Made by a program: the position numbers and the translations under genes. Positions 1 to 33,546 of a stretch of 64,000 nt of DNA are shown in pieces. Positions within the stretch are counted from its first letter, which is position 1; every line of letters begins with the position of its first letter. Source of the stretch: Candidatus Bathyarchaeota archaeon. GTDB lineage: Archaea > Thermoproteota > Bathyarchaeia > Bathyarchaeales > Bathycorpusculaceae. The stretch covers positions 864,001 through 928,000 of the forward strand of contig OY970280.1 of assembly GCA_963715865.1 (NCBI GenBank), read 5' to 3'. A model generated the notes under the pieces. It was not told the origin of the DNA, did not search any database, and saw only the letters and a list, made by a program, of their open reading frames with translations.

Positions 1-1059
1 TTATCTTTTAAAATAGGCTCTGCATGGGGCATTCCAATTGAGCTGCACCTTACATTTATCCTGTTAATAATAGCGGTGTTTATTCTTTTTTATCCTCAAA
101 TCTACTCTTTTGTCCTCATACTATTCCTGTTTGTTTTCGTAGTTTTCCATGAGCTTGCGCACTCAGTTGTTGCAAGACGCTACGGGATTAAGGTTCGTAA
201 AATTATTCTTTACCCAATCGGCGGCGTGTCAGAAATAGAGGAAATTCCCGAAAACCCCTCAATAGAATGGCGAATGGCAATCGCTGGACCAGTCACAAGC
301 TTAATACTTGGAGGCGCCTTTCTGGGCATAAACCAGTTCATATCAATACAAATACCGTTATCCACGGTTTCGTCCTCAATACTTTATTCGGGAAACCTGC
401 TGCTTGACTTAGGATTCCTAAACCTGTTCCTCGGCGCATTCAACTTAATCCCAGCTTTTCCCATGGACGGCGGCAGAGTTTTCAGGGCTTTGCTGGCTGA
501 ACGGATGAAGTTTTCTGATGCTACAAAATACGCCGCTTATATCGGCAGAATATTTGGCATTTTGATGGCTGTGGTGGGAGTTTTATTTAATTTTTGGTTA
601 ATAATAATCGGCGTCTTCGTTTACATAGGTGCCAGTGAAGAAGCAGAGCAAACAATAGTCTCCACGACTTTAGCGAGTGTTCGAGTTAAAGATGTCATGC
701 AATCTGAGGTGGGCGCGGTTCACCCTGACCAAACCATCGCTGAGACCTTGGAAGTTATGTTCAAATCCAGATATCATGATGCACTTGTCGAGAAAGATGG
801 CGTTTTTCAAGGCGTGGTTATTTGGAATGAAATAATCAAGGTTGCACCAGAGCAACGTAATAACCTGAAGGTTGAGCAGATGCCCCTAAAGAACATTTCA
901 ACCTATCCGGATGAAGCAGTTCTTGAAGTATACAAACTTATGACTAAAGAAAAAATTGACCTGGTACCTGTTGTTGATAGGGAAACGCCTACAAAAGTGA
1001 TAGGTGTCCTGACAAGTGAAGCTATAGCGAATGCTTATGAGAAAGCTAGGAATCGTTAA
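1..1059 (+). CDS. Site-2 protease (M50 family Zn metalloprotease) with C-terminal CBS pair; 5' partial
   Basis: HELAH and NLIPAFPMDGGR motifs, TM segments, CBS domains; frame is open back to base 1 (LSFKIGSAWGIPIELH). Confidence 0.92.
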   Translation, partial: LSFKIGSAWGIPIELHLTFILLIIAVFILFYPQIYSFVLILFLFVFVVFHELAHSVVARRYGIKVRKIILYPIGGVSEIEEIPENPSIEWRMAIAGPVTSLILGGAFLGINQFISIQIPLSTVSSSILYSGNLLLDLGFLNLFLGAFNLIPAFPMDGGRVFRALLAERMKFSDATKYAAYIGRIFGILMAVVGVLFNFWLIIIGVFVYIGASEEAEQTIVSTTLASVRVKDVMQSEVGAVHPDQTIAETLEVMFKSRYHDALVEKDGVFQGVVIWNEIIKVAPEQRNNLKVEQMPLKNISTYPDEAVLEVYKLMTKEKIDLVPVVDRETPTKVIGVLTSEAIANAYEKARNR

Positions 1060-1501
1060 AAGCACTAACATTTGTTATACTGTTTGAGAATCTTATGTAT
1101 TACTACACAATACTTTTATGCTGTACAGACAAACTAAAGTCAAGACCTTTGCAACCAAAAAAGTCCACCCATGGAAGAGGTTCACGTGGATCAGGGCAAG
1201 TATAAAATGAAAAGCAAACCAATTGAGCTATTAAAAGTTGGATCGTGAGCAACAATCAGCTTGAACGATTCAATACAGAGGGCGAGGGGGTTAGCTCAAA
1301 TTACTGCTTTTCGCAATTTGCCATGAAACCACAAGAACCTCTTCCATCAGCCCAATCACGAGATGATGTTAATAACAAACTTTCTCAGACCGACTTTGAA
1401 AAGAGTATGTAATTTCTGCCATAGACAAATCCTATTATCCCAAAAATGACCATCTTATCCTACATCTAAATCTAACAGTCAATTGAAAATGTGAAAACGG
1501 A

Positions 1502-3655: not shown

Positions 3656-3702
3656 TGGTGGGGCTGGAGATCCTTGAACCCAAAAGGGTTCAAAACCTTA
3701 TT
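3656..3702. repeat. tRNA-3'-end-like site with TTGAAC-CCAAAAGG-GTTCAA palindrome
   Basis: TGGTGGGGCTGG (reverse complement of acceptor+CCA); 3674-3702 identical to 22248-22276 (29 bp). Confidence 0.8.
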
Positions 3703-14945: not shown

Positions 14946-15276
14946 CCAGCATCTCAAACGGCGAGAGCCTCAGCAGGATAGTCCAAAATGCTACGTTGAG
15001 AACGGTTTCGGGTTACAGGATTGTGCCGCCGCTTAGTACAGGATCTGAAGCAAGACTACTGATGAACGAATATCTCAGACAGGTGTATCGTGGGCAATGA
15101 CGATTTTTGTACAACTGCTTGACTTGACCACTGGATTCATCAACTTCTATGGAACACTCGGTTGTGTCCAGCCGAGAAGAGTGGGCGATCTGCAACTCGT
15201 AAACTCGATAGCCATTTGATGTCGAGTAACCGAGACAAATTATTTATTAAATCACGCTGCTTTTGCGGGGCAGGGG

Positions 15277-15451
15277 TGCGACGAGCCGAACTTGAACCCA
15301 AACCAGACTGCGTGAAAACTCAAACCGCGTTCAAAAAGTTGCGCTCTACGTGTATATGCAGCAGCGTCCTGCTACCAACATTTTTCACACAAAAAAAGCA
15401 TTTTCCTGAAACTCAATCGAGTTTTTACACAGTCTCAAACAGGTTCAAGCC
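15277..15451. mobile_element. Mini-element copy 1 (129-bp core with terminal inverted repeats) inside a TTGAAC-N8-GTTCAA site
   Basis: TTGAAC-CCAAACCA-GACTGCGTGAAAACT ... AGTTTTTACACAGTC-TCAAACAG-GTTCAAG. Confidence 0.72.
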
Positions 15452-15680
15452 CCAGACCAAACGCAAGCAGTTAAACTCTTGTTTAGTCTGTAAACTTAGG
15501 GTTTGCTAAATCTAGTCTCAGCCTTCACCGATTAAGAGTAAGTTGTTCTGCCATAAATGACCTTCGGCAAATTTAGTGTCGTTTCTGAAATTGTTCACAT
15601 GGGGTAACCTGAACTCCTTTTGTGGTCTGAGAACACATATTACAATAAGCCTTGGCAAAAGTTTCTCGCAAGTTGAAACT

Positions 15681-16745
15681 TTATTCAAATAGGGGTGAGA
15701 GATCTTGAATTCCATAATGAGATTCAACTAACGCTGTCGCTTTTTTTATAAACACATTTTCAAGAATACTTCTGAATTTTTCCAGATCTTCTAAATTCAA
15801 TTTGCAAGATGTTTTTCCATGAATGAGGTTGTTTCGCTCACTCCTTAATTTACGTATTAATTGTTGGTCGTTGCTCGTCAGAGATACACCCAACCTCTCC
15901 AGTAGCTTTTGCCATTTTACCATTAAAGGCGGTTCATTCACTTTCTTTAATGTCTCAACCAAGGCAACCTCTTCTTGAAGTGGCAAAGCAAGATTTTGAA
16001 CTGCCAAGATACTTTTGTTGATATTTTCCTTTTTAGCAAGTTTGGATACTTTTTCATTAGTGCATAGGAACTCGAACGCAATCCAGAGTTGAAGTAAATT
16101 ATCAATTAAAGATTCTATTTCGAAAGACTGCATAAGCCAACTGAGTGTTTCATATAGCGATTGAACACTTTCATTATACTGACTCTTAATTTGTTCCAGC
16201 TTGTCAAGCGTTGGAATTAATGGATCGAAGAAATCTTGAGGACTATGATGGAAAACTAACTGATGTCCAGATTGCACATTCAGTAAGTTGAAGACTGCGC
16301 CTTTTGTTATTGAATCAATAGCCAACCCATAAGGTATTAAATGACACTTTGAGAAAGCTTTACTCATGTTATAATTCAACAGTACTTTTTTGCCATTATC
16401 GTTTATAGAGGGTAAAGTAATATCTGTTCTAAATTGTATCCAATCCACCGCTCGTTTAGTAACTGTCTCAGCCTTAGTTAATGCATCTAAATAATGTTCG
16501 GCAGTCACTTCGACCACGGCAAACGATGGATTGCCCTCCCAAGGTTGATTTCCAAGTGTTTTAGAACCTCTTATTTTATCAGTTAATATTTTGCTGATGT
16601 CATTAGTAAATAGAACTTCCTGTATCGTAAACTCAGATGGAAGAATAAGCCCACGTATCGGAAAAATAACTTTGAAGTTACGTTGAACTAAAAGGGGCTG
16701 ATTACCACCATGAAAAATGGGGGGCAAGTTTGTTGACTTAGCCAC
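15681..16745 (-). CDS. ApeA-like HEPN domain protein (putative RNase), possibly 5'-truncated
   Basis: LWIAFEFL and RNNLIH (Rx4H) motifs; GTG start without clear RBS. Confidence 0.75.
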   Translation of the reverse strand: MAKSTNLPPIFHGGNQPLLVQRNFKVIFPIRGLILPSEFTIQEVLFTNDISKILTDKIRGSKTLGNQPWEGNPSFAVVEVTAEHYLDALTKAETVTKRAVDWIQFRTDITLPSINDNGKKVLLNYNMSKAFSKCHLIPYGLAIDSITKGAVFNLLNVQSGHQLVFHHSPQDFFDPLIPTLDKLEQIKSQYNESVQSLYETLSWLMQSFEIESLIDNLLQLWIAFEFLCTNEKVSKLAKKENINKSILAVQNLALPLQEEVALVETLKKVNEPPLMVKWQKLLERLGVSLTSNDQQLIRKLRSERNNLIHGKTSCKLNLEDLEKFRSILENVFIKKATALVESHYGIQDLSPLFE

Positions 16746-16797
16746 AAAATAAATAGCATCTTGGGGAGATCTTGAAAAAGGCGATGCAAGTGAAGAC

Positions 16798-17340
16798 TCA
16801 GTTCTGTTTCTTTGCTACGCGGTCTTCAGGTTTAGGCGTAGGCAAACACAAAGCTGAAAAAACACTTTCCTCTGTATCTCCAGCCACCGCAACTTTATCT
16901 TTTGTCAACCCTTCGCTGTACTTCAACCTAAAACCTTTTGACAGGGCATAACTCGCAAGCCACATGTTATGATCTGCTGAACCCGTACGGATAAGCTCTT
17001 GAATGCCAAACGTTTGCTCAGTTGCACGGTAAAAATCAACTTGAAAAAGGCTGTTTTCAAAGGGATAGTTTAGTTTTATCACGCTTTTTCCCGCACAAAT
17101 AACCTTAGCCTTCTTTAAGGCTTGAACAATTTTGCCCCAGTTACATTCAGTTCCAATAGCAACAAAATCCACGTCACCAACCGTTGGCCTCTGCCGTCTG
17201 ATGGAGCCAACTACCTCAAGCTTATCGCATAATGGCTTGACTACACTTTCAACTTGTTTAGCAAGTAGCTGTGCGTTTACTAACTCAAGCTTTGTTAAAA
17301 CATTAGGCTCTTCTTCGCCGAACAATTTAGCCTGCTTCAA
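16798..17340 (-). CDS. polX: Minimal DNA polymerase X (palm and thumb only)
   Basis: GSIRR, GDVD, QVD, RTGSADHN, EESVF..L.LP..KPEDR; 180 aa, no lyase or PHP domain. Confidence 0.85.
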   Translation of the reverse strand: MKQAKLFGEEEPNVLTKLELVNAQLLAKQVESVVKPLCDKLEVVGSIRRQRPTVGDVDFVAIGTECNWGKIVQALKKAKVICAGKSVIKLNYPFENSLFQVDFYRATEQTFGIQELIRTGSADHNMWLASYALSKGFRLKYSEGLTKDKVAVAGDTEESVFSALCLPTPKPEDRVAKKQN

Positions 17341-17373
17341 TGTTCCATTCTTCCCCAGTTCTCAACGGCAAAT

Positions 17374-17487
17374 TTATGATTTCTCTTCAATCTCCAAACG
17401 GAGCTGACAGTTTTCTTTCCCAATACAGTAATCGCAACTAACATATTCTTTTTGGGTTTGGCAATCAATCACTATTTGAGCATACAT
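17374..17487 (-). CDS. 37-aa Cys-rich peptide (not in ORF track)
   Basis: MYAQIVIDCQTQKEYVSCDYCIGKENCQLRLEIEEKS; GAGG upstream; directly upstream of polX. Confidence 0.45.
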   Translation of the reverse strand: MYAQIVIDCQTQKEYVSCDYCIGKENCQLRLEIEEKS

Positions 17488-17660
17488 ACTTTCTCAACCT
17501 CGGGAAGCAACCCTACTTGCAGAACTAGCTTATAGGCAATATCGACTAAATGACAGCACTATTTTAGCTGACTAATGCCTTTTCATCATCAATTGTAAAC
17601 AAAAATATGAGTTAAAGGTCTCTGTTTCCAGTCAACGATAATAGGCAAATGCCTCTAAAA

Positions 17661-17704
17661 GGTGGCGAGCCCGCTGGGATTTGACCCCAAATGGGGTCGG
17701 AACC
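17661..17704. repeat. tRNA-3'-like site with TTGACC-CCAAATGG-GGTCGGAA palindrome
   Basis: GGTGGCGAGCCCGCTGGGATTTG matches 23649-23671 at 21/23. Confidence 0.8.
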
Positions 17705-17800
17705 TATAACATGGAATCAACAACTTCCGAGAAGACACTGGAAAAACAATACAAGCCCTCCGGCAAACAATTTTTCAAAAAAAACAATTCTGTTTTTTTA

Positions 17801-17843
17801 TAGCGGGTCCGATGGGATGCGCTTAAACTATTAAGCGAATTCC
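17801..17843. repeat. tRNA-3'-like site joined to CGCTTAA-N4-TTAAGCG palindrome
   Basis: TAGCGGGTCCGATGGGAT identical to 22139-22156. Confidence 0.8.
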
Positions 17844-17932
17844 ACGAGTTATGAGCATAGAAGCAGTCGTTCCTTTGTTAACGAAGGTCAATCTCTCCGT
17901 ATCTCTTGCTTTCAATAGATAGTAAGAGCAAC

Positions 17933-18065
17933 ATGATGAAGCGTTACGATTTCTGTAAGTGAAGAGATAGCAAAAAAGTTAGAGGAAGAGCGAAAGAAAC
18001 GTCTATTGGATTCGATTTCCGAAACAATAAGGGTGATATCGAGCGAATACTATTCAAAAAGATGA
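17933..18065 (+). pseudogene. Ribbon-helix-helix (CopG-like) regulator, frameshifted
   Basis: MMKR then, in another frame, VTISVSEEIAKKLEEERKKRLLDSISETIRVI. Confidence 0.6.
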
Positions 18066-19277
18066 CATTCCCACCACTTCTCCGTTCGCCATTTTATAAA
18101 GAGTATAAAGTCTTCCAAAACTGTCTTCCTTATTTAGTTTTTTTGCTTCTTCCATTTTAAGACGCAAGTAGGATACAATATCTTTGTGTTCTGAATCGTC
18201 TCTCTTCTTCAGTTGGTAAAAAGCGTCCCTGAAGTCGCTCCCAAGTGTTTGCCACTTCGGGTTGCTCCACAGGGTGCTGGCATCATCGATAAGTTTCATT
18301 AAGTAATTCTTGGAATATTCATGTAATTGTAGAAGTATGTTGAAAACATTGGAAATAGAAGTAGTGTCGTAATTAGGGTCATCGTAGAATTTGCCTATTT
18401 CTTTTAGCCATTTTTGGTTGATAGCGGTTGTAACTTGTTCGCTAAAATGATTGATAATCATGGCGAGAAATTGTATATACTTCTCGGCATGAGACTCATG
18501 GAAAAGTTTCTCAGGTATAACACATTCTAAGGTTTTCTCAATTTCGTCTTTCACTTCGTTCCATTTGTAGTTGTCGCAGAGAGTACGGAGCTTATCCTGA
18601 AAATTGTCTAGCATTATTGCTTTTATGTCTGTGTTAGATGCTTCCTGTACTGCGTCTGATGCTTCTTTAAACGCATTAATTCGATTCGTATATGTAGTAT
18701 TGCGCTTAGTAATAAGCAGTTGTTGAGATTTCCACATATTATAGAGTTCGTTTGTTGTAAACCAAGCAAAAAACGATAATAACCCGATACCAAAAAGAAT
18801 TAGACTTATCTTACCAACAAGAATTTGGTTACCCATATTAGGTAACGCAGGCGTGACTGACAAGCTAAAGGCAATAGCGATTACTGTTACGCCCATGATT
18901 AGCATTGTAATCATGGTAATCCAAACCATTGGTCTCTTTTCTTTCTCTATGGGCGGTCTTCTAAAAAACTTAGAAAGTGAATTTGTGCCTTTTTGGATAG
19001 GCGGTGATATTGTGACATTTTCGCCTTTGGCGCCCGCACGATTGCGTCGTGCGTGAATCTGATAACCCAGCCAAAGAGCAGAGAGAAAGAAAATCAACAG
19101 AGCCAAAACTACGAAGAGTATAAAGTAATTTGCCAAGAAATCAACTCCGCGAAATAGAGGTTCGGGTATAAAACCCAACAAAACCAAGAGCCACAGGATT
19201 GAGCCGATGTTGCTTGTTGCTGAAAGAAGAAATTTCAACACACTCATTATCTTGTGGGTTTCCATGGTCATCAACAT
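18054..19277 (-). CDS. Hypothetical membrane protein (about 4 TM) with large helical domain
   Basis: 407-aa ORF with hydrophobic N-terminal half. Confidence 0.75.
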   Translation of the reverse strand: MLMTMETHKIMSVLKFLLSATSNIGSILWLLVLLGFIPEPLFRGVDFLANYFILFVVLALLIFFLSALWLGYQIHARRNRAGAKGENVTISPPIQKGTNSLSKFFRRPPIEKEKRPMVWITMITMLIMGVTVIAIAFSLSVTPALPNMGNQILVGKISLILFGIGLLSFFAWFTTNELYNMWKSQQLLITKRNTTYTNRINAFKEASDAVQEASNTDIKAIMLDNFQDKLRTLCDNYKWNEVKDEIEKTLECVIPEKLFHESHAEKYIQFLAMIINHFSEQVTTAINQKWLKEIGKFYDDPNYDTTSISNVFNILLQLHEYSKNYLMKLIDDASTLWSNPKWQTLGSDFRDAFYQLKKRDDSEHKDIVSYLRLKMEEAKKLNKEDSFGRLYTLYKMANGEVVGMSSF

Positions 19278-19431
19278 GTGCCCATTTAAATTTAACTTTT
19301 ACCCCGATAGTTACACTGACATTCTGAAACTCTCAAACCCCGAAAAATTATCCGAACCCCTTTTCGGTTGTTTTAAATAGCCCTTCTTTAGATACGAAGA
19401 AGTGAAAAGCAAAACGTAGGAACTAATAGAC

Positions 19432-20040
19432 TTGATGCCTAACACAAGATGTGTTAAATTTGATGTCCCCAAGGATTGCAAACTAAGAAAATACTCGGAG
19501 CAATTAGTGTACATTTTTAAAAACAAAGACTACAAAGAAGATTTCAATAACTTTAGCGACCAACTATTCCATGATAGCTTTGCTTTCGTCAAAAAAGAGC
19601 TAAAAACAGACAAGCATCCTGTTATAGTAGTCGAGTTCGTTTACACTCAAACAGAATATGAAAGACTTGAAAAACAAGTAAACCAATTTGTGTACCAAAG
19701 AGAGAAGCCAAAAATTAAAACTCTTGGGTTTACGATAACAAGTAACTTCAGCAACAAGATTTACATTAATTTTGAGCCTCTTTTTGGGCTAATAGAAAAA
19801 AATTGTTCCGCCTTCGTGTTTAATCTAGTTTCAACGCTAATTCATGAAATTTTGCATTGCTTCTATCGTGACTTGAAAGATGAGCAAGCAACTTACGACC
19901 TTCACTGTAAAATGCTTGAAGTCTTTTTAGGCATAACTTTACCCGATGAAATGAAAGAGACAAAAGCATCCGATTACTATACATCAAAGATGCAGAAGTT
20001 AAATAGCTTAGGTGACGATTTTTCAAATAGACAAACCTAA
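19432..20040 (+). CDS. Zincin-like metallopeptidase domain protein
   Basis: TLIHEILHCF (HExxH). Confidence 0.65.
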   Translation: MMPNTRCVKFDVPKDCKLRKYSEQLVYIFKNKDYKEDFNNFSDQLFHDSFAFVKKELKTDKHPVIVVEFVYTQTEYERLEKQVNQFVYQREKPKIKTLGFTITSNFSNKIYINFEPLFGLIEKNCSAFVFNLVSTLIHEILHCFYRDLKDEQATYDLHCKMLEVFLGITLPDEMKETKASDYYTSKMQKLNSLGDDFSNRQT

Positions 20041-20102
20041 AAAGCGTTGCCCCAAGTCACTCATGTAAACGAAGACGCACAGCAAAAAGAAAAAAGGAAG
20101 AT

Positions 20103-21101
20103 TTAAGATGATTCTCTTACAGCAAAGAGAGTTTCCATCTTTTTCTGGTAATCTCTAAAACCGAATCCTGGATAAATCAAAAGAGTTTTTGGTTCAGCGA
20201 CTACGCTTTTTAGATACCCCTCATAGATTTTCTTGTTGTTTTTATCTTCCAAGAAATCCATTATTTGATTTAGCTGTTTTTCTCCAGCTTCACCAAGCTT
20301 CTTTTCTATGTTATCTATCTTCTCATCAAAGTTCTCAGAATCTTCCGAGTAGCGAAGCGGATTAGTTAGCGAGATTTTAATGCTTCTGAATAAGTCTTCA
20401 AGGTCCCAAGGTTGAAATATGCTGTTTTCTGCTTCTTTGAGTTTTTTTAGATGTCGCATAGCTTCGTAATAAACTGCTTGATCCGTTGGTTCACCTTGCT
20501 CTGGAAATTCTTTCTTCAAGCTGAAACGTGCGACAAGGGCAACCTGATTCAATCTTGCTGTTTCCACTTCTTTCTGTTCTTGTCGGCAAACAAGATTATA
20601 GGCTTCCAAAAGTAGCTTTCTGTATCTTAATATGATTTCATGTTCCTTAGGACCGCGCTCTGAAAGAACAAATTTTTCCCATATGTTCATAATTCTTTCT
20701 TCGACTTCAATAAAAGGAGAACCCTTTGAAAAATCGTCATCAATTAGCTTTCTAAGAATTGGTGAATCTGTAACAATCAGCCAACGAAAGTAGTAAGAAA
20801 GCCCTAATTTATTTTTGTCCTTTTCATGCAGCTGTTTGGAGAATTGTTCATTCAAGAATTCAGAAATATCACTGAGGAACATAGACTCTAAGCCTATTGG
20901 CTTTCTCTCAAATTTACGGGTTTCAATATTTCTTTCAATTAAACCTAGACTTTGAAGATGTTTTAGGTAATCGGAAAGGAGCGTAGGTTGATGAGAAAAA
21001 CCAGACAATTCCCCTATCTCTTTATTCCTTTGTGGCCCTTTTTCCAGAGCCTTTAATATTCTTATTTCGCCAGGAGCCAGTTTCCTCTCCTTACTTTTCA
21101 T
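20103..21101 (-). CDS. Winged-HTH domain protein
   Basis: ILKALEKGPQRNKEI..LSDYLKHLQSLGLIER N-terminal wHTH. Confidence 0.75.
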   Translation of the reverse strand: MKSKERKLAPGEIRILKALEKGPQRNKEIGELSGFSHQPTLLSDYLKHLQSLGLIERNIETRKFERKPIGLESMFLSDISEFLNEQFSKQLHEKDKNKLGLSYYFRWLIVTDSPILRKLIDDDFSKGSPFIEVEERIMNIWEKFVLSERGPKEHEIILRYRKLLLEAYNLVCRQEQKEVETARLNQVALVARFSLKKEFPEQGEPTDQAVYYEAMRHLKKLKEAENSIFQPWDLEDLFRSIKISLTNPLRYSEDSENFDEKIDNIEKKLGEAGEKQLNQIMDFLEDKNNKKIYEGYLKSVVAEPKTLLIYPGFGFRDYQKKMETLFAVRESS

Positions 21102-21237
21102 TAACTACACCATAACTATAGAAACTACAGTATAAGTATATTAGTTTTTCTTGGATTTTAACTATGATTAATGAGAAGTAACAAATGCCAAACATTAGAA
21201 AATTAATGAAACTTTATTACGGCAAAGAACCACGCGA

Positions 21238-21768
21238 GTGGTATATACTTCACAGGTTTTTCGGAGGGATTCTTTGACTCAATCGTTTAATGTCATGATT
21301 TGCGCTTCTCAAGAAACGCATCCAGACTTCATTAAATGTGCTGAAGGTGTTTGCAAAAAGAGACGATATAATATGATTTTCTCTCCATACAAATCACAAG
21401 AAAAACTTTTAGAAAAATTCGAAAACAGTTTACCTGACGCCAATATAATTTTAATGGACGTAACACCTCAAGAGCTTAAAGATTCAGAAAATAAAACACA
21501 CTACATTACAAATCAAGGAGTACTGATCGAATTTGGGTATATCATTGCCTTAAGAGACTATTACAAATTTCTTTACATTTTTTGTGATGCAACTAAGCTA
21601 GAAAAAACACACCCATATGTTCGAAACGAAACCATCAACAAATATTCAAAAGACAATCTGAGAGAAAAAATTCTCGGAAAAGTTGACGAACGCCTAAAAA
21701 GAATACCTTGCGAGTACATTACAGATAGAAAACGAATTAAAAACCTAGAAGAAAAAATTCTTAGATAA
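21238..21768 (+). CDS. Nucleoside 2-deoxyribosyltransferase/TIR-like domain protein
   Basis: ANIILMDVT..NQGVLIEFGYIIAL motif. Confidence 0.6.
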   Translation: MVYTSQVFRRDSLTQSFNVMICASQETHPDFIKCAEGVCKKRRYNMIFSPYKSQEKLLEKFENSLPDANIILMDVTPQELKDSENKTHYITNQGVLIEFGYIIALRDYYKFLYIFCDATKLEKTHPYVRNETINKYSKDNLREKILGKVDERLKRIPCEYITDRKRIKNLEEKILR

Positions 21769-21774
21769 AGGAAC

Positions 21775-22001
21775 GAGTTAGACGGCAAAGCGTTAACCTA
21801 CGAATGGACAGACATTCCCTCTATTGGTGCTCATGTTTTTGAACGCTTAGATTGCCCAACCAAAAAATCCTCTTGCTTCTAGAGAGAATATCCAAATTGA
21901 TCACGAGAGAGGGAGAAACTGTTCTTGACCCCTTCTGTGGTTGTGGAACTACAATTATGGCCTTTAAGGGATTGAAGAAACGGTGGATTGGTAAAGACTA
22001 A
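21775..22001 (+). pseudogene. C-terminal remnant of an N6A/N4C DNA methyltransferase
   Basis: EWTDIPSI..ERLDCPTKK, frameshift, then LLERI..GETVLDPFCGCGTT..RWIG*. Confidence 0.8.
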
Positions 22002-22120
22002 CATAATTGGCAATTTCATTTATTCATTCCCGTCTGACCTCTGAGAAAGCACTGATGATCACTATAGCGGCGGGGTCAAATTACAGCATCCAACAAACGT
22101 TGCAAAGCGGGTCATACAAA

Positions 22121-22181
22121 GGATTCGCTTAATGTTATTAGCGGGTCCGATGGGATTTGAACCGTGTTGGGTTCAAGCCGC
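22121..22181. repeat. GGATTCGCTTAA half-site plus tRNA-3'-like site TTGAAC-CGTGTTGG-GTTCAAGCCGC
   Basis: Direct reading; GTTCAAGCC arm is shared with the mini-element flanks. Confidence 0.8.
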
Positions 22182-22231
22182 ATTTATCGGACAACGCTTC
22201 TCCCGAACCAAACCAACATTCTATCTTGAAT

Positions 22232-22276
22232 GCGGACCCAGTGGGATTTGAACCCAAAAGGGTTCAAAACCTTATT
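22232..22276. repeat. tRNA-3'-like site TTGAAC-CCAAAAGG-GTTCAA
   Basis: GCGGACCCAGTGGGATTTGAAC; last 29 bp identical to 3674-3702. Confidence 0.8.
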
Positions 22277-22373
22277 CAAATAAGAAGGGATAATCTTCTC
22301 GTCTCAAATAGGAGCGGGCGGAAAAGAAGACTGACAACTCTGCTAATAAAATGTTAAGAATTATCCTCCAAAA

Positions 22374-22409
22374 GCGGGCCCGCTGGGACTCGAACCCCGC
22401 GGGGCGAAT
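22374..22409. repeat. tRNA-3'-like site, degenerate right arm
   Basis: GCGGGCCCGCTGGGACTCGAAC-CCCGCGGG-GCGAAT. Confidence 0.7.
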
Positions 22410-22482
22410 ATGTACTATCCACCTTTTTCCATGCACAAAAATTTAAACAGAGAGCCGCTTTTCGTGTATTAGAGGAAACTAA

Positions 22483-22722
22483 GTGTCTGGAAAATGGCTT
22501 AATTCTCACACCTATGGCTTAATGGCTCTTCTGTCTGGTATAACAGGCATCTTGTCTATAGCGGTTTCGCGAGCCTATTTGCCTGCTGGTTCATTGTTTG
22601 CGTTGCCTCTTTTAGTTTTAGGTTTATTTCTAGTTGTGGTTTCGGTTGTTTTCTTGTTCTTTTTCTTTACGATGCAGTGGCGTTGGACACATGGTCAACC
22701 ACAGCCACGTCCATTGACCTAA
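22483..22722 (+). CDS. Small 2-TM membrane protein
   Basis: 79 aa, two hydrophobic helices. Confidence 0.6.
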   Translation: MSGKWLNSHTYGLMALLSGITGILSIAVSRAYLPAGSLFALPLLVLGLFLVVVSVVFLFFFFTMQWRWTHGQPQPRPLT

Positions 22723-22759
22723 AAGCTAAATCGTTACGTTGTTACTAATCAGCCTTTTG

Positions 22760-23164
22760 TCACCCTTGCAAAGTTATTGTTTGTCCTGCAACATCATAGG
22801 AAATTACATTATACAAGTAGTTACCCAATAACAGAGTTTGATTAGAACCTAAGTCGTATTGAACAATTGGTTTACTATGTTCAAAAGTCGGAACAACAGG
22901 TGGCAGAAAACTTGCTACAGTTTGATTCATGTAAACTAACGTGTATTGAGAATCGTCTATCTCGTCCCCAACATGATAAGTTGCAGTAACTGGTATTTGC
23001 TTTTGAGAATTTTGAGCATTTTTAATTATCGGCTCTCCATACAGGACAAAGGTGAAAACTATGAGTGTCGTAACGACAATTGCTAGGATGATTTTTTGTT
23101 TATTTTTATCCATTTTTACCACCGATTTTAGCTTTTTCAATCTCCACTCGCTAGATGTTTTCAT
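22760..23164 (-). CDS. Membrane-anchored hypothetical protein
   Basis: N-terminal TM followed by beta-rich domain. Confidence 0.65.
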   Translation of the reverse strand: MKTSSEWRLKKLKSVVKMDKNKQKIILAIVVTTLIVFTFVLYGEPIIKNAQNSQKQIPVTATYHVGDEIDDSQYTLVYMNQTVASFLPPVVPTFEHSKPIVQYDLGSNQTLLLGNYLYNVISYDVAGQTITLQG

Positions 23165-23230
23165 CTTTGAAGAATAGTGTTTGCAAGCGGGATTGCACGG
23201 AAATAGATGGGGTCTGAACTGCTTTTTTCT

Positions 23231-23488
23231 TTACGTACGACGTTTTCGTCGCCGAATTAAAATCATCACTCCGTACATCACTCCTCCAGTGAATAGCGAA
23301 ATAAAGACTCCTTGAAATAGATTATACGCCAGACTCTCACCATCAAAAAAATTAGAGATTAAACCAAACGATAAGAAGAAACCTACCATAATTATAATAA
23401 TTCCCGCGTTTGGAAGCTCTTGAATCTTGAAAAGTCGCTTTAACCTGTCTTCAAATGAGGACAAAGTAGATGCCACTACCTTCAACAC
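23231..23488 (-). CDS. Small 2-TM membrane protein
   Basis: Two TM helices and a basic RRRKRR tail. Confidence 0.6.
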   Translation of the reverse strand: MLKVVASTLSSFEDRLKRLFKIQELPNAGIIIIMVGFFLSFGLISNFFDGESLAYNLFQGVFISLFTGGVMYGVMILIRRRKRRT

Positions 23489-23648
23489 ATTGTGAGAGCA
23501 GCAAGTATTTTACATTTTTCCCTGTCTTTGGGCAGAGCGAGTTTCTTGAATACCGATGGCGGAATACGCCAAGATGTACGTGGTAAGTTATCCCACGAAA
23601 AGCTTTCAAAAGGTTCCAGTCAAACGATAATGAGTAAATGTCTATGCA

Positions 23649-23744
23649 GGTGGCGAACCCGCTGGGATTCGTTTAATTATTTAAGCGAATCCTTTGTCTT
23701 AACCACAAACGAATAGTGGATCGCTGGGATTTGAACCCTAGGAC
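23649..23744. repeat. Two tandem tRNA-3'-like sites; the first carries the GGATTCGTTTAA-TTAT-TTAAGCGAATCC palindrome
   Basis: 23649-23692 and GTGGATCGCTGGGATTTGAACCC at 23716-23738. Confidence 0.78.
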
Positions 23745-23895
23745 AAGTGGAGATATCTCCCGCGCCATCTTCCCTCTTTTTCTTTTGGCTAAAGAAAACT
23801 CGGTTTTTCATAACCATTTCATTTTTGATTCTCGGATAACGTTCGTGCTGGAGTCGCATTTTTTATTATTCATACTTGCAGCTACGCCAGTCTCG

Positions 23896-24108
23896 TTAGG
23901 GGTTTACTCTTCCAACTCTTCTCAACAGTACGTTGGCTATCAAAGCCACAGCCAAATCGGCTAAAATCCAAACTATGAACGTAATAACTCCTAAGAGAGC
24001 CAAAAAAGTGAACAGCAGCAGAAGAGCTATTGCAATTATGCCGATTCTTTTCTTTCTTCGGCGTAATTTATCAGGGGTCAAATTAGTTGCGGCAGGCATA
24101 TCCGTCAC
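23896..24108 (-). CDS. Small membrane protein
   Basis: Basic patch followed by a hydrophobic hairpin. Confidence 0.65.
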   Translation of the reverse strand: MTDMPAATNLTPDKLRRRKKRIGIIAIALLLLFTFLALLGVITFIVWILADLAVALIANVLLRRVGRVNP

Positions 24109-24168
24109 TTTTAACTCAATATCAAAGGTCTTAAAATATTAATCTTCAAGATATTCTAGATAATTGCT

Positions 24169-24438
24169 GTGCAATTACAGAAACTCAGAGAGGTTAGCTG
24201 GTCTAACCCTGATGTCCCGCTCAATGAAGTCAGATTACTTTTTAGTTTCATCAAAGGTTGGGACCGCTTTTTTCAAGGGGATGCTGACCACTTTAAAGAA
24301 ATCTATACAGAAGTTTTTCCTGCAATCGATAAGGTAAGAAAAGAGAAAATTGAAGAAATAATACTCACAGACGAAATGACTGTAGAAATTCGTAGAACCT
24401 TTGATAAAATAGCTAATTGCACAGGATTTGATAGATAG
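24169..24438 (+). CDS. Hypothetical protein
   Basis: 89-aa ORF, plausible composition. Confidence 0.45.
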   Translation: MQLQKLREVSWSNPDVPLNEVRLLFSFIKGWDRFFQGDADHFKEIYTEVFPAIDKVRKEKIEEIILTDEMTVEIRRTFDKIANCTGFDR

Positions 24439-27428: not shown

Positions 27429-30080
27429 ATGAAATTTGCTAAAAACAAAACTATTGCTATTGCAATCGCTATATTCTTAATGCTTTCAATGACAGCTTCA
27501 ATGATGCTAGTTCCGGCTAATGCTCACACACCGGCATGGCAGGTTCCTACATATGCATTCATCAATGTCGCACCTAACCCAATAGGGGTAGGGCAACAAG
27601 TCTCTGTAACATTTTGGCTTGATAAAGTCCCGATCGGTGCAGAAGGGCAATGGGGATCAAGATGGCATAACATGAAAGTAACTGCTAAGGATCCTGACGG
27701 AACCAACACAACAATAGGCACGTTTAACTCTGACCCCAACGGCGGTGCAACAACATATTTCACTCCGACAAAAACAGGCACCTACACTTTCTACTTTGAG
27801 TTCCCAGGACAGATAGCACAAAATGAAAACCCATACCCATACGTAGGATTCATCGGACTTGGACTTGACTACGTCAACGACACTTTCTTACCAAGCAGCG
27901 CCTCCACAACACTTACAGTACAGTCACAAGCAATCTCCTACGCTTATGGAGCATCCCCCCTTCCAACTGCATACTGGACACGTCCAATAAACTCCATGAA
28001 CAGAGAATGGGCACCCATCACTGGCAACTGGCTAGGCCTTGGAGCAACATCCTTTGGCGTAACCGGCATGTACACTGACACTGGAGGAGTAACCTCTGCA
28101 GGAGGAAACTTTGACCCATACTCAACAGCACCAAATAGCGCCCACGTCATGTGGACGCAACCTATAGCGTTCGGCGGTCAGATTGGAGGAGAATTCGGAA
28201 CCGGCGACGCAGCTATCTATGCCACTGGAACAGCTTACGAATGCAAATTCGGCGCCGTAATACTAAACGGAATTCTCTATTATACCGAGTATCCGGGCGC
28301 AGGAACCAACCCATCAGGTCTGAAGGCTGTTGACTTAAGAACTGGCGCAACAGTTTGGGACAAGAACATCACCGACCCGCTAAGATGCGGCATGGTAACA
28401 AACTTCCAAACCGGCGACCAATACGGAGGACACGCATACCTGTTCACTACAAATTCCTATGAAGGATTCGCTGAGCCTTACTCTGCACTCACCGCACCCA
28501 CTACTTGGGGAATGTACGATGCAATGACCGGAGACTGGATACTAAACATTGCAGGTGTACAAGCCTCTGATGATCTTGTAGAAGGTCCAAACGGAGAAAT
28601 ACTATGCTACTACGTTAACAGCTCATCTACAACCGGTGCAGCCTCCCTTAGCATGTGGAATTCATCTTTATGCATCGCGCAAGGCTCCCAGTCAAATCTT
28701 TTCTATCTTACTTACAGCGCTAAAGAAATTTGGCGACCCGTGCAAGGAGCAACTATCCCATGGAGTGCAGGAATCCAATGGAGCGTACCCATCGCGACCA
28801 GTATCAATGGTGTTTCAATGGCTCCATACACTTTAGGCGTAGCAGGGATCGACAACAACACCATACTTATGACCGCGACTACAGGAGGAATATTCGCCGG
28901 ACCACCAGGCGGAGCATCATTAGGCTTCAGATATGATGCAGGTTACAGTACAACAGGTCAACTGCTTTGGGGTCCAGTGAACCGCACGTTAACACCATTC
29001 ACTACACAAGTTCTGTCAGTTGGTGACGGAAAATACGCTGAATACACTCAACAAATGCTGACGTGGACAATGTACGATCTCAAAACTGGAAACAAACTAT
29101 TCACAACGCCACAATCGAATAGTTCCTGGAGCTACTATGACTTCACTGGTCCAAGCACTTTTGGATACGGAAACTTCTACACTTGGGGCTTAGGTGGAAC
29201 AGTATACTGCTACGATGACACTACCGGTCAACTTAAATGGAGTTGGTCCGCTGGAACAGCAGGTCTAGATACCCCATACGGAACCTGGCCTTTAGGTACC
29301 TGGTCAAGTCACCATATCCTTGCAGACGGCAAGCTCTATGTTAGAGCCGGACATGACTACACTCCACCAGTCTTCAAAGGTGCAAAGATTTACTGTATCA
29401 ACGCTACAACTGGAAAAGAAATTTGGGACTCACTTAGCTTCGACATCGTAAGTTCGCCTGCACTCGCAGATGGATACATGGTCTGGGATAACGGCTATGA
29501 CAACCAAATATACTCTTACGGCCAGGGACCAAGCGCATTGACTGTTTCAGCGCCTAGCGTTGGCGTGACAACCTCTACGCCTATAACTATAAGCGGCACC
29601 GTAACCGACATCTCTGCCGGAACAAAACAAGACGCGGTAGCATCGAACTTCCCGAACGGTCTTCCATGCGTTTCTGACGCAAGCATGAGCAGGTGGATGG
29701 AATACGTTTACCAGCAGCAACCATGCCCAACTAATGTGACTGGTGTTCCAGTTACCCTAAGTGTTCTTGACTCAAACGGCAACTACAGACAAATCGGCAA
29801 CACCACAAGTAATGCAGACGGCTTGTTCGCTTATACTTGGACACCTGATATTCCAGGCAGTTACACTGTCATCGCTAACTTTGCAGGTTCAGAATCGTAC
29901 TATCCATCATCCGCTGACGCAGCCTTCTATGCCAGTTCTCCAGCGCCAACAGCATCTCCATATCCAGTGACCGTTTTGCCTCCGACTGAAATGTACATTG
30001 GCGCAGCAGCAGCCGCAATAATAGTTGCAATAGCCATAGTCGGCGTTATAATAGTAATGATGCTTAGGAAGCGACCATAA
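27429..30080 (+). CDS. Large secreted PQQ-like beta-propeller surface protein with Ig-like domains and C-terminal TM
   Basis: Signal peptide, repeated D..TG..W motifs, C-terminal TM plus RKRP. Confidence 0.88.
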   Translation: MKFAKNKTIAIAIAIFLMLSMTASMMLVPANAHTPAWQVPTYAFINVAPNPIGVGQQVSVTFWLDKVPIGAEGQWGSRWHNMKVTAKDPDGTNTTIGTFNSDPNGGATTYFTPTKTGTYTFYFEFPGQIAQNENPYPYVGFIGLGLDYVNDTFLPSSASTTLTVQSQAISYAYGASPLPTAYWTRPINSMNREWAPITGNWLGLGATSFGVTGMYTDTGGVTSAGGNFDPYSTAPNSAHVMWTQPIAFGGQIGGEFGTGDAAIYATGTAYECKFGAVILNGILYYTEYPGAGTNPSGLKAVDLRTGATVWDKNITDPLRCGMVTNFQTGDQYGGHAYLFTTNSYEGFAEPYSALTAPTTWGMYDAMTGDWILNIAGVQASDDLVEGPNGEILCYYVNSSSTTGAASLSMWNSSLCIAQGSQSNLFYLTYSAKEIWRPVQGATIPWSAGIQWSVPIATSINGVSMAPYTLGVAGIDNNTILMTATTGGIFAGPPGGASLGFRYDAGYSTTGQLLWGPVNRTLTPFTTQVLSVGDGKYAEYTQQMLTWTMYDLKTGNKLFTTPQSNSSWSYYDFTGPSTFGYGNFYTWGLGGTVYCYDDTTGQLKWSWSAGTAGLDTPYGTWPLGTWSSHHILADGKLYVRAGHDYTPPVFKGAKIYCINATTGKEIWDSLSFDIVSSPALADGYMVWDNGYDNQIYSYGQGPSALTVSAPSVGVTTSTPITISGTVTDISAGTKQDAVASNFPNGLPCVSDASMSRWMEYVYQQQPCPTNVTGVPVTLSVLDSNGNYRQIGNTTSNADGLFAYTWTPDIPGSYTVIANFAGSESYYPSSADAAFYASSPAPTASPYPVTVLPPTEMYIGAAAAAIIVAIAIVGVIIVMMLRKRP

Positions 30081-30311: not shown

Positions 30312-30437
30312 GTGGCGCCGGGAGAGAGGGATGAAGATTTGAATCCTTGAAGCGTCAAAGGAAAATTCGAATTTAGGTAAATAATTTTTATGTAAGGTTC
30401 CACTAGACTTTGGGTTCGGAGCCCAGCGGCCCCGCCA
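30312..30437. repeat. Two tRNA-3'-like fragments in opposite orientation
   Basis: GTGGCGCCGGGAGAGGGAT (30312) and GGGTTCGGAGCCCAGCGGCCCCGCCA (30412-30437). Confidence 0.7.
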
Positions 30438-30484
30438 TTAAGAAAGCGATTTGGCTGACTCTAAAAAACTGTAAGATAAAGATT

Positions 30485-30659
30485 GCGGCTTGAACCCGTT
30501 TGAGAGTGTGTGAAAACTCAAATTTAGTTTTAGAAATTGCAGCTTATATCTAAAAACACGTCCTGGCACCCTACCGAATCGACGTAAAAGTAGCAATTTT
30601 CTGAAATTGAAACTAGTTTTCACACAGTCTCGTTTGGGTTCAAGTTCGGCTCGGCCCAT
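30485..30659. mobile_element. Mini-element copy 2 (126-bp core)
   Basis: GCGGCTTGAAC-CCGTTTGA-GAGTGTGTGAAAACT ... AGTTTTCACACAGTC-TCGTTTGG-GTTCAAGTTCGGC. Confidence 0.72.
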
Positions 30660-31197
30660 ATTAGACTCAACCCCGAAGCGGTCTGAGTCCCAATTTGTTA
30701 CGCCACTAGAAGTATAGGATTATAAGTACGTACTCGTTTCTTTGAAGGCGGATCATTTTAAGTAGCAAAAGCCACAGGCACAGATATTTAGTTTTTTCAT
30801 GTCTGTCGCCTGCAAATTGAAGACTCTAACTTGCTTATAAAATGAGCCGAAAGCTTATTCCATCTGCAAAAATGATGAATCCTTATACTGCATAGTAAGT
30901 TGCGAAAGTTATAAGGAAGTAGAGCGCGTGTGGTGCATCATATTATCAGAGAGAATATCGCAATTATTTCTAGGGCTATTCCGATGATGTGTAACTGATC
31001 AAACTTGTTGCTTCTCTTTACTGTTTCCATTTTTTCATTTCCCCGTTTTGCTTCTCAGCTGGAATGCCGAGACAAAGCGTACTTTCATCAATGTTGTTTG
31101 GAAAGGTTGTGATTCCTTAGCAAGTTTCGATTCACTTGGAACCTTTCGAGCTCGCTCCCTTAAACTGAAGGTAAAGGGCTGCTGGATTTGAAGAATT

Positions 31198-32106: not shown

Positions 32107-33414
32107 TTAGGTTTTGTTCATTTTGATAACAACTTTATTGTTCGGAAGCTTGTCTACGTATTCCCAGCCTTTCGCCAAATAATTATTTGCTTCGTCAACA
32201 CTGACCACTTTCTGCGAAGCCCCGTTCGGCGCTTGTCCACCTAAAAGTCTCTTCCTGAGTATATTTTGCAGTTCTTCGTCGCTCATCGAGGGCACATCCA
32301 TTTTGTCCAACTCCGCCTGAGTGAAACCAGCCACCAACAAAAGCTGCTTCCTAAAACTGCCCTTAAGCTTCTCCTCGCTGGTTTCCTCCTTCATCTTAGT
32401 CTGCAAAAACTCCTCGCTTCTCGCGTAAGCAGCCCGCATATCCTCCAAAACAGACTCAGGCAACCTCTGCTTGTTAGTCGTATACCGGTTTTCAATATCC
32501 CCCTTATGACCCATCCAAAACTGCCGGTAATCCCTGAGCACCAAACCCTTCGACTCAGCAAGCATCAGCATCGTATCAAAATAACACCGTAAAACGTACG
32601 GTCGCCAAGGAAGCCCAGCACTTCTGATGGCTAGCCTCATCATATCTCCAATGTTCACTGTACGTATGAAAGGTTTCTGAGCAAACCTAGGAATGACAAT
32701 AGCAGAGTCAGGTATCAGCAGTTCGCCGTCTCTGAGGCGTTCCTCCAAGTAATCTTTCAGGTAGCTACAGGCTTCTTCTGTGAGGAAAGTGAAGTACTGA
32801 TGACGAGCCTTACTTAAGCCTGAGCGAACAACAACCATCGTGGGTATTTTCTCAAAGCTTACCTCGGACCCCTTGATCTTGAGTTCGGGTAAATCCCGCA
32901 TTCTCAGGCCATCGTGACCCGTATAGTTGCCAAGGGTCTCCAGCCTTAAGCCTGCATGGGCGATTACAGCACAGGCTGTGCGGGCCTGTTTGCTTCCGGA
33001 CAGGAAAATGCGTTTCAGCTCTTCTTTCGTGGGAACACGTTCGTCATTGAGGGTCGGCGTCTCATGGGCACCCGTGATCTTTATCTTGCGTTTAAGCTGG
33101 ATTTCATTATGTGCAAGCCATGACTTGACAACTTTGGTCGTGTTGTGGATATAGCTGCCCGCATGCTTCTTCTGCGCGGACGTAACGTAGTCCATGAGCA
33201 GGTCTTCTAATTCCGTAACAGGCTTATGCGCGAGTTGCCCTGGCGTTGTGCCCATGAGCTGGCAAAAGTTTCCTAGGTTCCGTAGGTAGATTTGGGCGCA
33301 GGCTGGTGACCCACGGATAAGGTTCTCGTACCAGCGCCGCACATCCTTATCCTCAAGCAGATATCGATATTTGGAGCGCGGATGGGCAGAATCAGACAAA
33401 CTTCTCAGCCTCAT
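32107..33414 (-). CDS. Tyrosine recombinase/integrase
   Basis: AGLRLETL (R), PYVLR (YxxR), MGH, RYT (Y); N-terminal SAM-like domain; 54 bp from the tRNA 3' end. Confidence 0.92.
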   Translation of the reverse strand: MRLRSLSDSAHPRSKYRYLLEDKDVRRWYENLIRGSPACAQIYLRNLGNFCQLMGTTPGQLAHKPVTELEDLLMDYVTSAQKKHAGSYIHNTTKVVKSWLAHNEIQLKRKIKITGAHETPTLNDERVPTKEELKRIFLSGSKQARTACAVIAHAGLRLETLGNYTGHDGLRMRDLPELKIKGSEVSFEKIPTMVVVRSGLSKARHQYFTFLTEEACSYLKDYLEERLRDGELLIPDSAIVIPRFAQKPFIRTVNIGDMMRLAIRSAGLPWRPYVLRCYFDTMLMLAESKGLVLRDYRQFWMGHKGDIENRYTTNKQRLPESVLEDMRAAYARSEEFLQTKMKEETSEEKLKGSFRKQLLLVAGFTQAELDKMDVPSMSDEELQNILRKRLLGGQAPNGASQKVVSVDEANNYLAKGWEYVDKLPNNKVVIKMNKT

Positions 33415-33468
33415 CTACAGTAACATAGGGTTTCGGCATAAAAGATTTGTGGTTTTGAACCAGAAGTC

Positions 33469-33546
33469 TGGTGCGGTCGCCGAGATTTGAACCCGGGTCG
33501 TCAGCGTGGCAGGCTGATGTCCTAGACCAAACTAGACTACGACCGC
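33469..33546 (-). tRNA. tRNA-Gly(GCC), CCA encoded
   Basis: GCGGTCG acceptor pairs with CGACCGC; anticodon arm TCAGC-CTGCCAC-GCTGA; T-loop GGTTCAAAT. Confidence 0.96.

Follow-up and report, generated by a model that had tools for sequence, protein, structure and literature searches.

The genome of this Candidatus Bathyarchaeota archaeon consists of one contig of 2.35 Mb (42.8% G+C). The 64-kb stretch analyzed here (bases 864001-928000; the window, to whose whole length all window positions refer) contained a row of eight short sites, S0 to S7, which were named in coordinate order and all lie on the minus strand. These sites are probably attachment (att) junctions that were left by mobile elements integrating via a tyrosine recombinase at the 3' ends of tRNA genes, and that built up a tandem row of units. 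The feature is of a known kind, tRNA-type att scars in a tandem row, and is unusually dense and modular. It is a variant of that kind in being detached from the tRNA, in its mixed cores and conserved palindromic arms, and in its integrase-less and gene-free units. No description of such arrays in Bathyarchaeia was found in the literature. In the proposed mechanism, each site would combine a core of 14-21 nt, which reproduces exactly or almost exactly the 3' strand of the T-stem, the acceptor strand, and the discriminator of a tRNA-Arg isoacceptor, with an arm, an element-derived palindrome (H1 or H2) on the tRNA-5' side of the core. Repeated insertion into cores already present would have produced a same-strand row downstream of tRNA-Gly(GCC), comprising cassette a, a mini-unit, the 4.3-kb element b, further mini-units including a module termed U141, and cassette c. 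Element b, with inverted H1-type half-sites at both ends, would have inserted in an older H2-type site, and the units would at present be either fossils or movable only by a recombinase acting in trans.

The initial annotation had described two pairs of direct repeats in which identical left halves were joined to different right halves, and this description was borne out. The sequence TAGCGGGTCCGATGGGAT occurred exactly twice in the window, at 17801 and 22139, and 100 shuffles gave no occurrence even with up to two mismatches; GGTGGCGARCCCGCTGGGATT also occurred exactly twice, at 17661 and 23649, with 0 expected by chance from the same number of shuffles. The right halves at 17801 and 23649 were CG(C/T)TTAA-N4-TTAAGCG (H1), whereas those at 22139 and 17661 were TTGAACC-N6-GGTTCAA and TTGACCCC-N4-GGGGTC (H2-type), respectively. 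The actual length of the outer repeat was 57 nt (17626-17681 vs. 23614-23669, 82% identity). Further same-strand sites of the same kind were located at 15276 (Val-like), 22232 (Arg-TCG-like), and 22374 (Arg-CCG), which were detected by a scan with all tRNA 3' ends, and at 23718, a degenerate site that was seen via repeat families and the raw sequence. With these additional sites the region is a row of eight sites and not two nested pairs; the nesting proposed earlier is correct by coordinates but not as an architecture, since in the tandem row S0-S7 only the inner pair acts as the ends of a single insertion. Fragments of tRNA tails were strongly clustered, as 5 of the 38 genome-wide hits with up to two mismatches fell within these 6 kb of the 2.35-Mb genome.

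The left halves correspond to the last 16-21 bases of tRNA-Arg genes on the opposite strand, ending in GGGAT, and on the minus strand they comprise the last two T-loop bases, the T-stem 3' strand, the acceptor 3' strand, and the discriminator. The sequence GCGGGTCCGATGGGAT (17803 and 22141) was identical to the end of the tRNA-Arg(TCT) gene of this genome (c[1589860-1589937]; 0 mismatches over 16 nt), and the repeat at 17661/23649 was one or two bases off the ends of tRNA-Arg(CCG) and tRNA-Arg(GCG). When cores were compared with the host tRNA 3' ends, S2 and S3 matched tRNA-Arg(TCT) with 0 mismatches, and S1, S5, and S6 matched tRNA-Arg(CCG/GCG) with 1-2 mismatches. This identity of the cores was directly observed, and judging by their sequence the left halves are att cores of tRNA-targeting integrases, a nature that the initial annotation had missed.

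Two main palindromic arm families, H1 and H2, were found on the tRNA-5' side of the core, and S5 and S7 bear two other arm types. H1 (GGGAT[G/T]CG[C/T]TTAA-N4-TTAAGCGAATCC) occurred six times in the genome, in a single orientation and each time fused to an Arg-type core. H2 consists of the tRNA's own T-arm followed by its inverted copy (TTGAACCC-N4-6-GGGTTCAA). As single-stranded DNA the arms form stable hairpins of -7.5 to -10.4 kcal/mol. H1 was present in 24 of the 81 genus genomes surveyed, and a reversed-pattern control in the same genomes gave 0 matches. In the loci of relatives, almost all of 69 further H1 matches were joined to an Arg-type core, the isoacceptor of which varied, although these do not equal 69 separate sites because a palindromic site often matches both strands. 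The H1 stems were almost invariant between species and the loops were variable, and the units between cores ranged from ~35 nt (H1 alone) up to 7.5 kb. The core of one H1 copy in this genome (668560-668660) was atypical; in place of an Arg acceptor strand it comprises a GGTAC…GTACC hairpin with a terminal CCACC.

Core repeats around integrase-bearing elements were directly observed elsewhere in the genus. At tRNA-Arg(TCT) of this genome, the C-terminal 128 aa of a tyrosine recombinase (the HxxR and catalytic Tyr region) converges on the tRNA and ends 15 bp away. The rest of that gene has been cut off by an rve-type insertion sequence, and an H1+core junction lies 4 kb downstream of the tRNA. 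This truncated remnant is the only cognate-type integrase in the genome. At tRNA-Arg(CCG) (1985275) an H1+core site lies 3.8 kb downstream, and intact tRNAs are paired with a core at these paralogous loci of the same genome (1589860/1585885 and 1985275/1981512). The recombinase family is ~480-500 aa long when complete (the 495-aa type); of the genus genomes sampled, 57 of 80 carried it, frequently as multiple copies. At all 12 sampled integrase loci, a short palindrome and a tRNA 3' core, or a whole convergent tRNA-Lys, were located within tens of bases of the stop codon; the core types 3' of these genes were Arg-CCG, Lys-UUU, or Asn. Four loci (L036, L038, L041, and L044) shared the same integrase 3' flank, followed by a tRNA-Lys core either way round, as a same-strand fragment or a convergent whole tRNA. 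The cores in question have a partly palindromic sequence (CCG-N-CGG; GCGGGCCCGC in Arg types), which might permit recombination in both orientations.

A complete element of 13.3 kb was identified at locus L040 (genome G068), where tRNA-Arg(GCG) and an integrase gene are followed by an arm and a core, and its 15-nt direct repeat spans the same tRNA segment as the left halves in the window. Three relatives (L076, L080, and L081) carried an intact tRNA-Arg(CCG) with H1+core 2-7.6 kb downstream, and the identical block was ~14 nt long and bounded by the T-loop and the discriminator. This indicates that strand exchange takes place inside the core and that GGGAT is merely its edge. The crossover near GGGAT that had been suggested earlier is therefore not upheld: GGGAT is the edge of the tRNA-shared block, and comparable left and right att sites (attL/attR) put the exchange inside the 14-16-nt core. 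H1 was also considered as the 495-aa integrase's own arm and rejected, because the two were adjacent only in contig G015:C6, where the integrase gene has a Pro-type core as its own site.

The inner pair (17801/22139) resembles an attR and an attL that bound a 4.3-kb insertion lacking an integrase, element b. The layout of S2 is arm (H1), core, and outside flank, as in attR, and that of S3 is outside arm (H2), core, and element arm, as in attL; in this element arm, 8 nt separate the core from an inverted H1-type half-site. Element b is proposed to sit in an older H2-type site. At a non-orthologous place in the relative G037, H2 and a core are followed after 6 nt by H1, with the same loop, and a second core, forming a cargo-less counterpart of S3…S2. 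In the outer pair, S1 and S6 share 57 nt of flank and core on the tRNA-3' side, which in a tandem row is the start of the next unit, so that F heads cassette a and F' heads cassette c. Peat contigs that were ~93% identical to cassette c had F' and the core joined to an S5-type arm and not to H1, and in the relative G072 the S6-S7 module was kept with a different left flank, the divergence starting at the core. The shared flank and core, the contig joins, and the G072 locus indicate that the outer pair marks two sister cassettes and not one 6-kb element. The pair is best read as the homologous left arm (F/F') plus core junction of cassettes a and c.

Reshuffling of modules across genomes was likewise seen directly, as the same cores and arms recurred in other combinations in this genome, in relatives, and in contigs from peat metagenomes. 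The earlier view of the repeats as recombination-site footprints, and of the units between them as discrete accessory-gene blocks gained successively, agrees with this reshuffling of cores and arms elsewhere. We infer that these units arrived by the integration reaction proposed above and in the order given; on this reading, the enzyme that reads H1 and H2 would be a tyrosine recombinase.

The gene-free module U141 was found in five copies in three species (window 22248-22388; genome 197595-197734 and 1585753-1585900; L017 4705-4860; and L018 1620-1762). The copies were conserved at 76-96% and were always flanked by two tRNA-type cores, with partners that vary on both sides. No RNA covariation and no Rfam hit were detected for U141, and a structured RNA was ruled out on these grounds; it may instead represent paired arm sites for a recombinase, or a promoter. 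A second mixed array was noted at genome 197440-197770 (L003 2440-2770), with a Gly-like core and H2, a Pro-like core and H2, U141, and an Arg(TCT) core and H1; it lies 33.7 kb downstream of tRNA-Pro(CGG) and the integrase of that tRNA, and shares their strand. The H1-bounded units at genome 1981553-1985274 and 197757-201453 had a common two-gene module encoding a 167/169-aa protein (80% identity) and a 437/400-aa signal-peptide protein (42% identity), neither of which had a Pfam match.

The features of the row are listed in Table 1. Cargo annotation (Pfam/NCBIfam/PADLOC) gave only weak matches, namely HEPN/ApeA-like, PolX thumb, wHTH/PriX-like, and TIR-like; in element b, the open reading frame (ORF) 20103-21101 gave a wHTH match with a weak PriX-like end, and ORF 21238-21768 had a weak TIR-like hit. 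No integrase was found among the scanned ORFs of a, b, and c, and there was no PF00589 match at window 15-31 kb. Among 30 relatives checked for synteny the enclosed genes appeared only as scattered patches, and the PolX gene and an 85-aa ORF were found in relatives that do not have the same flanks. The 407-aa gene of element b had one metagenome homologue that lacked such flanks, but at 47% identity it is too remote to be informative. Public sequencing runs were checked for reads of deletion alleles. The best matching runs were peat metagenomes, in which only 5-7% of the words sampled were present; their matching contigs belonged to relatives and none to this strain. The joints found in public runs (17840>23728, 23641>22379, and others) derive from other organisms or palindromes and are uninformative on excision.

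Table 1. Sites and units of the att-like row and the head of the island (window positions; MITE, miniature inverted-repeat transposable element).
Feature	Position	Strand	Description	Basis
S0	15265-15460	-	tRNA-Val-like 3' core (15276-15291) and H2-type palindrome, loop split by a ~130-bp putative MITE	
Cassette a	15461-17660	-	HEPN-like gene 15681-16745; minimal PolX/nucleotidyltransferase-like gene 16798-17340; left arm F 17626-17660	Pfam/NCBIfam/PADLOC; F homologous to F'
S1	17661-17705	-	tRNA-Arg(CCG/GCG)-like core (1 mismatch) and H2-type palindrome TTGACCCC-N4-GGGGTC	
Mini-unit S1-S2	17706-17800	-	Gene-free; 17675-17746 (with the S1 palindrome) resembles genome 219267-219341	
S2	17801-17845	-	Exact tRNA-Arg(TCT) core 17803-17818 and H1 palindrome 17813-17843; proposed attR of b	
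Element b cargo	17846-22120	-	Without integrase; ORFs 18054-19277 (-), 19432-20040 (+), 20103-21101 (-), 21238-21768 (+)	
Right-end arm of b	22109-22138	-	Inverted H1-type half-site GGATTCGCTTAA (22121-22132) abutting the S3 core	Inverted repeats
S3	22139-22181	-	Exact tRNA-Arg(TCT) core 22141-22156 and H2 palindrome 22157-22176; proposed attL of b, older H2-type site	
S4	22230-22271	-	tRNA-Arg(TCG)-like core (2 mismatches) and H2 palindrome TTGAACCC-AAAA-GGGTTCAA	
U141	22248-22388	-	Gene-free module conserved in three species, always between two cores, partners differing	
S5	22372-22405	-	tRNA-Arg(CCG/GCG) core and T-arm-like arm with CCCCGCGGGG palindrome	
Cassette c	22406-23648	-	ORFs 22760-23164 (-), 23231-23488 (-); left arm F' 23614-23648	
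S6	23649-23692	-	tRNA-Arg(CCG/GCG)-like core (2 mismatches) and H1 palindrome	
S7	23715-23770	-	Degenerate core and third arm class (…GGAGATATCTCC…)	
Island head	32107-33546	-	tRNA-Gly(GCC) 33469-33546; 435-aa tyrosine integrase 32107-33414	

Window 1-1061 and the sequence from 33469 onward were collinear with the relative G037 (G037:C5 and G037:C147; 96.5% identical in the right flank), whereas window 1062-33468 (~32 kb) was absent from it, and each genome has its own DNA between these edges. The right breakpoint is base 33469 exactly, the 3' end of tRNA-Gly(GCC), and in G037 this tRNA-Gly carries another island, which is at least 17.8 kb long. The comparison places the row in a strain-specific island of ~32 kb that is headed by tRNA-Gly and a 435-aa integrase. 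S0-S7 are on the same strand as tRNA-Gly(GCC), and the 435-aa integrase gene beside this tRNA is the nearest integrase to the row, 8.4 kb from S6-S7. S7 was considered as a diverged attR of the tRNA-Gly/435-aa-integrase element and set aside as a guess, as its core matches Gly cores at only ~10/15 positions. The 90%-identical 435-aa integrase of the relative G018 had different cargo and no S7-like site within 18 kb.

At the left edge of the island, G037:C5 contains a whole tRNA-Pro(CGG) near 28900, right after the shared left-edge gene. This genome (G000) has only an H2 arm and a Pro(CGG)-like core there (window 3658-3702, minus strand), 2.6 kb further in than the tRNA of G037, and its own tRNA-Pro(CGG), with a second 435-aa integrase, is located 630 kb away at 231425. 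This displacement points to a large rearrangement whose breakpoints fell at att sites. Two opposite-strand sites were noted at window 30400-30680 (plus strand). At 30420 a Pro(GGG)-like core is joined to an H2-type arm, and a second putative MITE copy (30487-30660) interrupts the H2 palindrome of a Val-like core. Window 23745-24171, which starts at the S7 arm, matched genome 647597-648056 in inverted orientation at 87% identity and gave short matches at 1841238 and 1209981; it is probably the conserved end of a third element class.

Several observations weigh against an origin of the row by integration at tRNA genes. In the tRNA and RNA calls (ARAGORN, Rfam), tRNA-Gly(GCC) was the sole tRNA of the window, and no intact tRNA-Arg was called at the row or close to it. 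Mixed cores (Arg-TCT, Arg-CCG, Arg-TCG-like, and Val-like) alternate in one row, whereas re-use of a single att site predicts otherwise. Neither of the two integrase families tested was present inside the H1/H2-bounded units here or in six arrays of relatives. There was no co-occurrence of H1 with the 495-aa family, which was carried by 15 of the 24 H1-positive genomes compared with 58 of 81 overall, and H1 stood beside a gene of this type only once (G015:C6). Gene-free units of 35-141 nt lay between two cores; these are too small for free circles and need a further explanation, such as internal deletion or co-mobilization. Finally, no empty site or excision product of element b was found in the peat contigs, which come from relatives, or with the metagenome homologue of its 407-aa gene.

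The units might alternatively be integron-like or pdif-module-like cassettes, in which the ~28-bp palindromes (11-nt inverted arms and a 4-6-nt center) are the recombination sites for a recombinase in trans and the core is merely included. This is considered unlikely, although it would suit the units without an integrase here and in six arrays of relatives, the H1 stems that are nearly invariant across species while the loops vary, the inverted H1-type half-sites at both ends of element b, and the occurrence of H1-core-H1 arrangements and cargo-less units. The share of H1-positive genomes was also higher where the 435-aa integrase family is present (10 of 15) than elsewhere (14 of 66), and 9 nt separate the end of one homologue of this family from an H1 site; however, the count runs across related genomes that are not independent, and the association is therefore only a lead. 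Against such cassettes, the block of identity between an intact tRNA and its partner site is the tRNA core and not the palindrome. Xer/dif modules were likewise examined and rejected, as the only H1-like sites in the genome were the six H1+core sites and the right-end half-site of b. A single-copy H1-like (dif-like) site is missing from the genome, and no H1 was detected in 57 of 81 genomes, which argues against a housekeeping Xer/dif system. Nevertheless, a cassette system stays alive as an explanation due to the lack of integrases in the units, the mixed cores, and the lack of co-occurrence with the 495-aa family. There is a modest chance that the genus runs a system of its own, with integrase-less cassettes of 1-7 kb and gene-free adapters (H1 units and U141) that are bounded by a tRNA-Arg-type core joined to a conserved ~28-bp palindrome and moved in trans. 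In that case the 435-aa family would be one candidate recombinase, and the process would create mixed-core rows, able to lie away from tRNA genes, as landing pads.

A transposon, casposon-like or other, with subterminal inverted repeats and a 16-18-bp target duplication at a tRNA-Arg-like end is quite improbable. The 18-bp exact direct repeat of b includes TA, unlike the CCA of the tRNA, inverted TTAAGCGAATYCC motifs occur near both ends of b, and very small H1-only inserts lie between duplicated cores in relatives, all of which would be compatible with transposition. On the other hand, Cas1 (PF01867) was absent from the genome and no transposase was found in the units, the inverted motifs have a subterminal position, with outermost bases that are not alike at the two ends, and elements with an integrase and the same core as direct repeat were observed. 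The absence of Cas1 and the subterminal position of the motifs make a casposon in particular a weak explanation. It is hardly plausible that the sites are functional RNA, that is, 3' fragments of split tRNAs, tRNA-like minihelices, or terminator or processing elements. Such a role would suit the many tRNA genes with introns in this organism, the location of most sites immediately downstream of genes on the same strand, and the stability of the hairpins; however, Rfam and ARAGORN were negative at the sites, and no complementary 5' pieces were found in a genome-wide search that was not exhaustive. Moreover, the leaders self-pair into hairpins and have no partner, the fragments measure no more than 16-21 nt, neither compensatory changes in the stems nor covariation in U141 were seen, and H1, the one arm surveyed genus-wide, is patchy (24/81 genomes) and within strain-specific DNA. 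Repeats may misguide assemblers as a rule, but an assembly artefact or chance repeats have a practically negligible probability, as zero chance matches are expected, the assembly is a single 2.35-Mb contig, and the same modules occurred in the independent assemblies G003, G018, G037, and G072 and in contigs from four peat metagenome runs.

Integration at tRNA genes, which is the preferred explanation, has well-known parallels in Archaea. Integrated elements of Thaumarchaeota have att sites with a median of 17 bp (PMC6563490), and tandem integration and integrase loss have been documented for archaeal elements (PMC6563490; PMC8371274). The present row resembles such tRNA tyrosine-integrase arrays in that the direct repeats are short copies of tRNA 3' ends (17 bp median there, 14-21 nt here), and in that re-use of the site yields rows from which the integrase genes are often lost afterwards. 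It differs in that it is detached from the tRNA of its core, several isoacceptor cores alternate, many units are 1-4 kb and integrase-less or 35-141 nt and gene-free, and the element-side arms are two genus-wide palindrome families.

In Firmicutes, accretion of integrative and conjugative elements, integrative and mobilizable elements, and cis-mobilizable elements (CIMEs) places integrase-less, att-flanked CIMEs, which are in principle trans-mobilizable, beside integrase elements, and the internal junctions are attP-like hybrids. The row also has integrase-less units flanked by putative att sites, whereas CIMEs are bacterial, linked to conjugation, and have one core per array. Integrons, including archaeal ones, likewise have small accessory-gene cassettes in a row, most of them promoter-proximal, with imperfect palindromes between them and an order that is shuffled between genomes. 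Here, however, there is no IntI-type integrase with attI at the head and no attC architecture, the boundaries hold tRNA 3' cores, and an upstream arm of their own (F/F') seems to accompany the cassette genes. The pdif modules and integrative mobile elements exploiting Xer (IMEX) make use of Xer recombinases, and their recombinase-less modules are bounded by inverted ~28-bp palindromic sites. Recombinase-less modules with such inverted boundaries are also a trait of the row, while no H1-like chromosomal dif-type site is present and H1 was not found in most genus genomes. Casposons insert at tRNA 3' ends with ~14-15-bp direct repeats and form tandem arrays; in contrast, this genome is without Cas1, no family-B polymerase was found among the scanned ORFs of the units, and these have no terminal inverted repeats.

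If the sites are scars only, they provide a map of how a strain-specific island, which carries toxin-antitoxin-like and defence-like genes, was assembled in an uncultured archaeal lineage, and they warn that calls of tRNA fragments in such genomes are att sites and not genes. The conserved arms, gene-free units found across species, mixed cores, and lack of an integrase suggest further that Bathyarchaeia may exchange cassettes via shared adapters. If this is true, Archaea would have a new route for capturing genes, a functional analogue of the integron built from different parts, and the system would also be a source of compact recombination sites and their enzymes.

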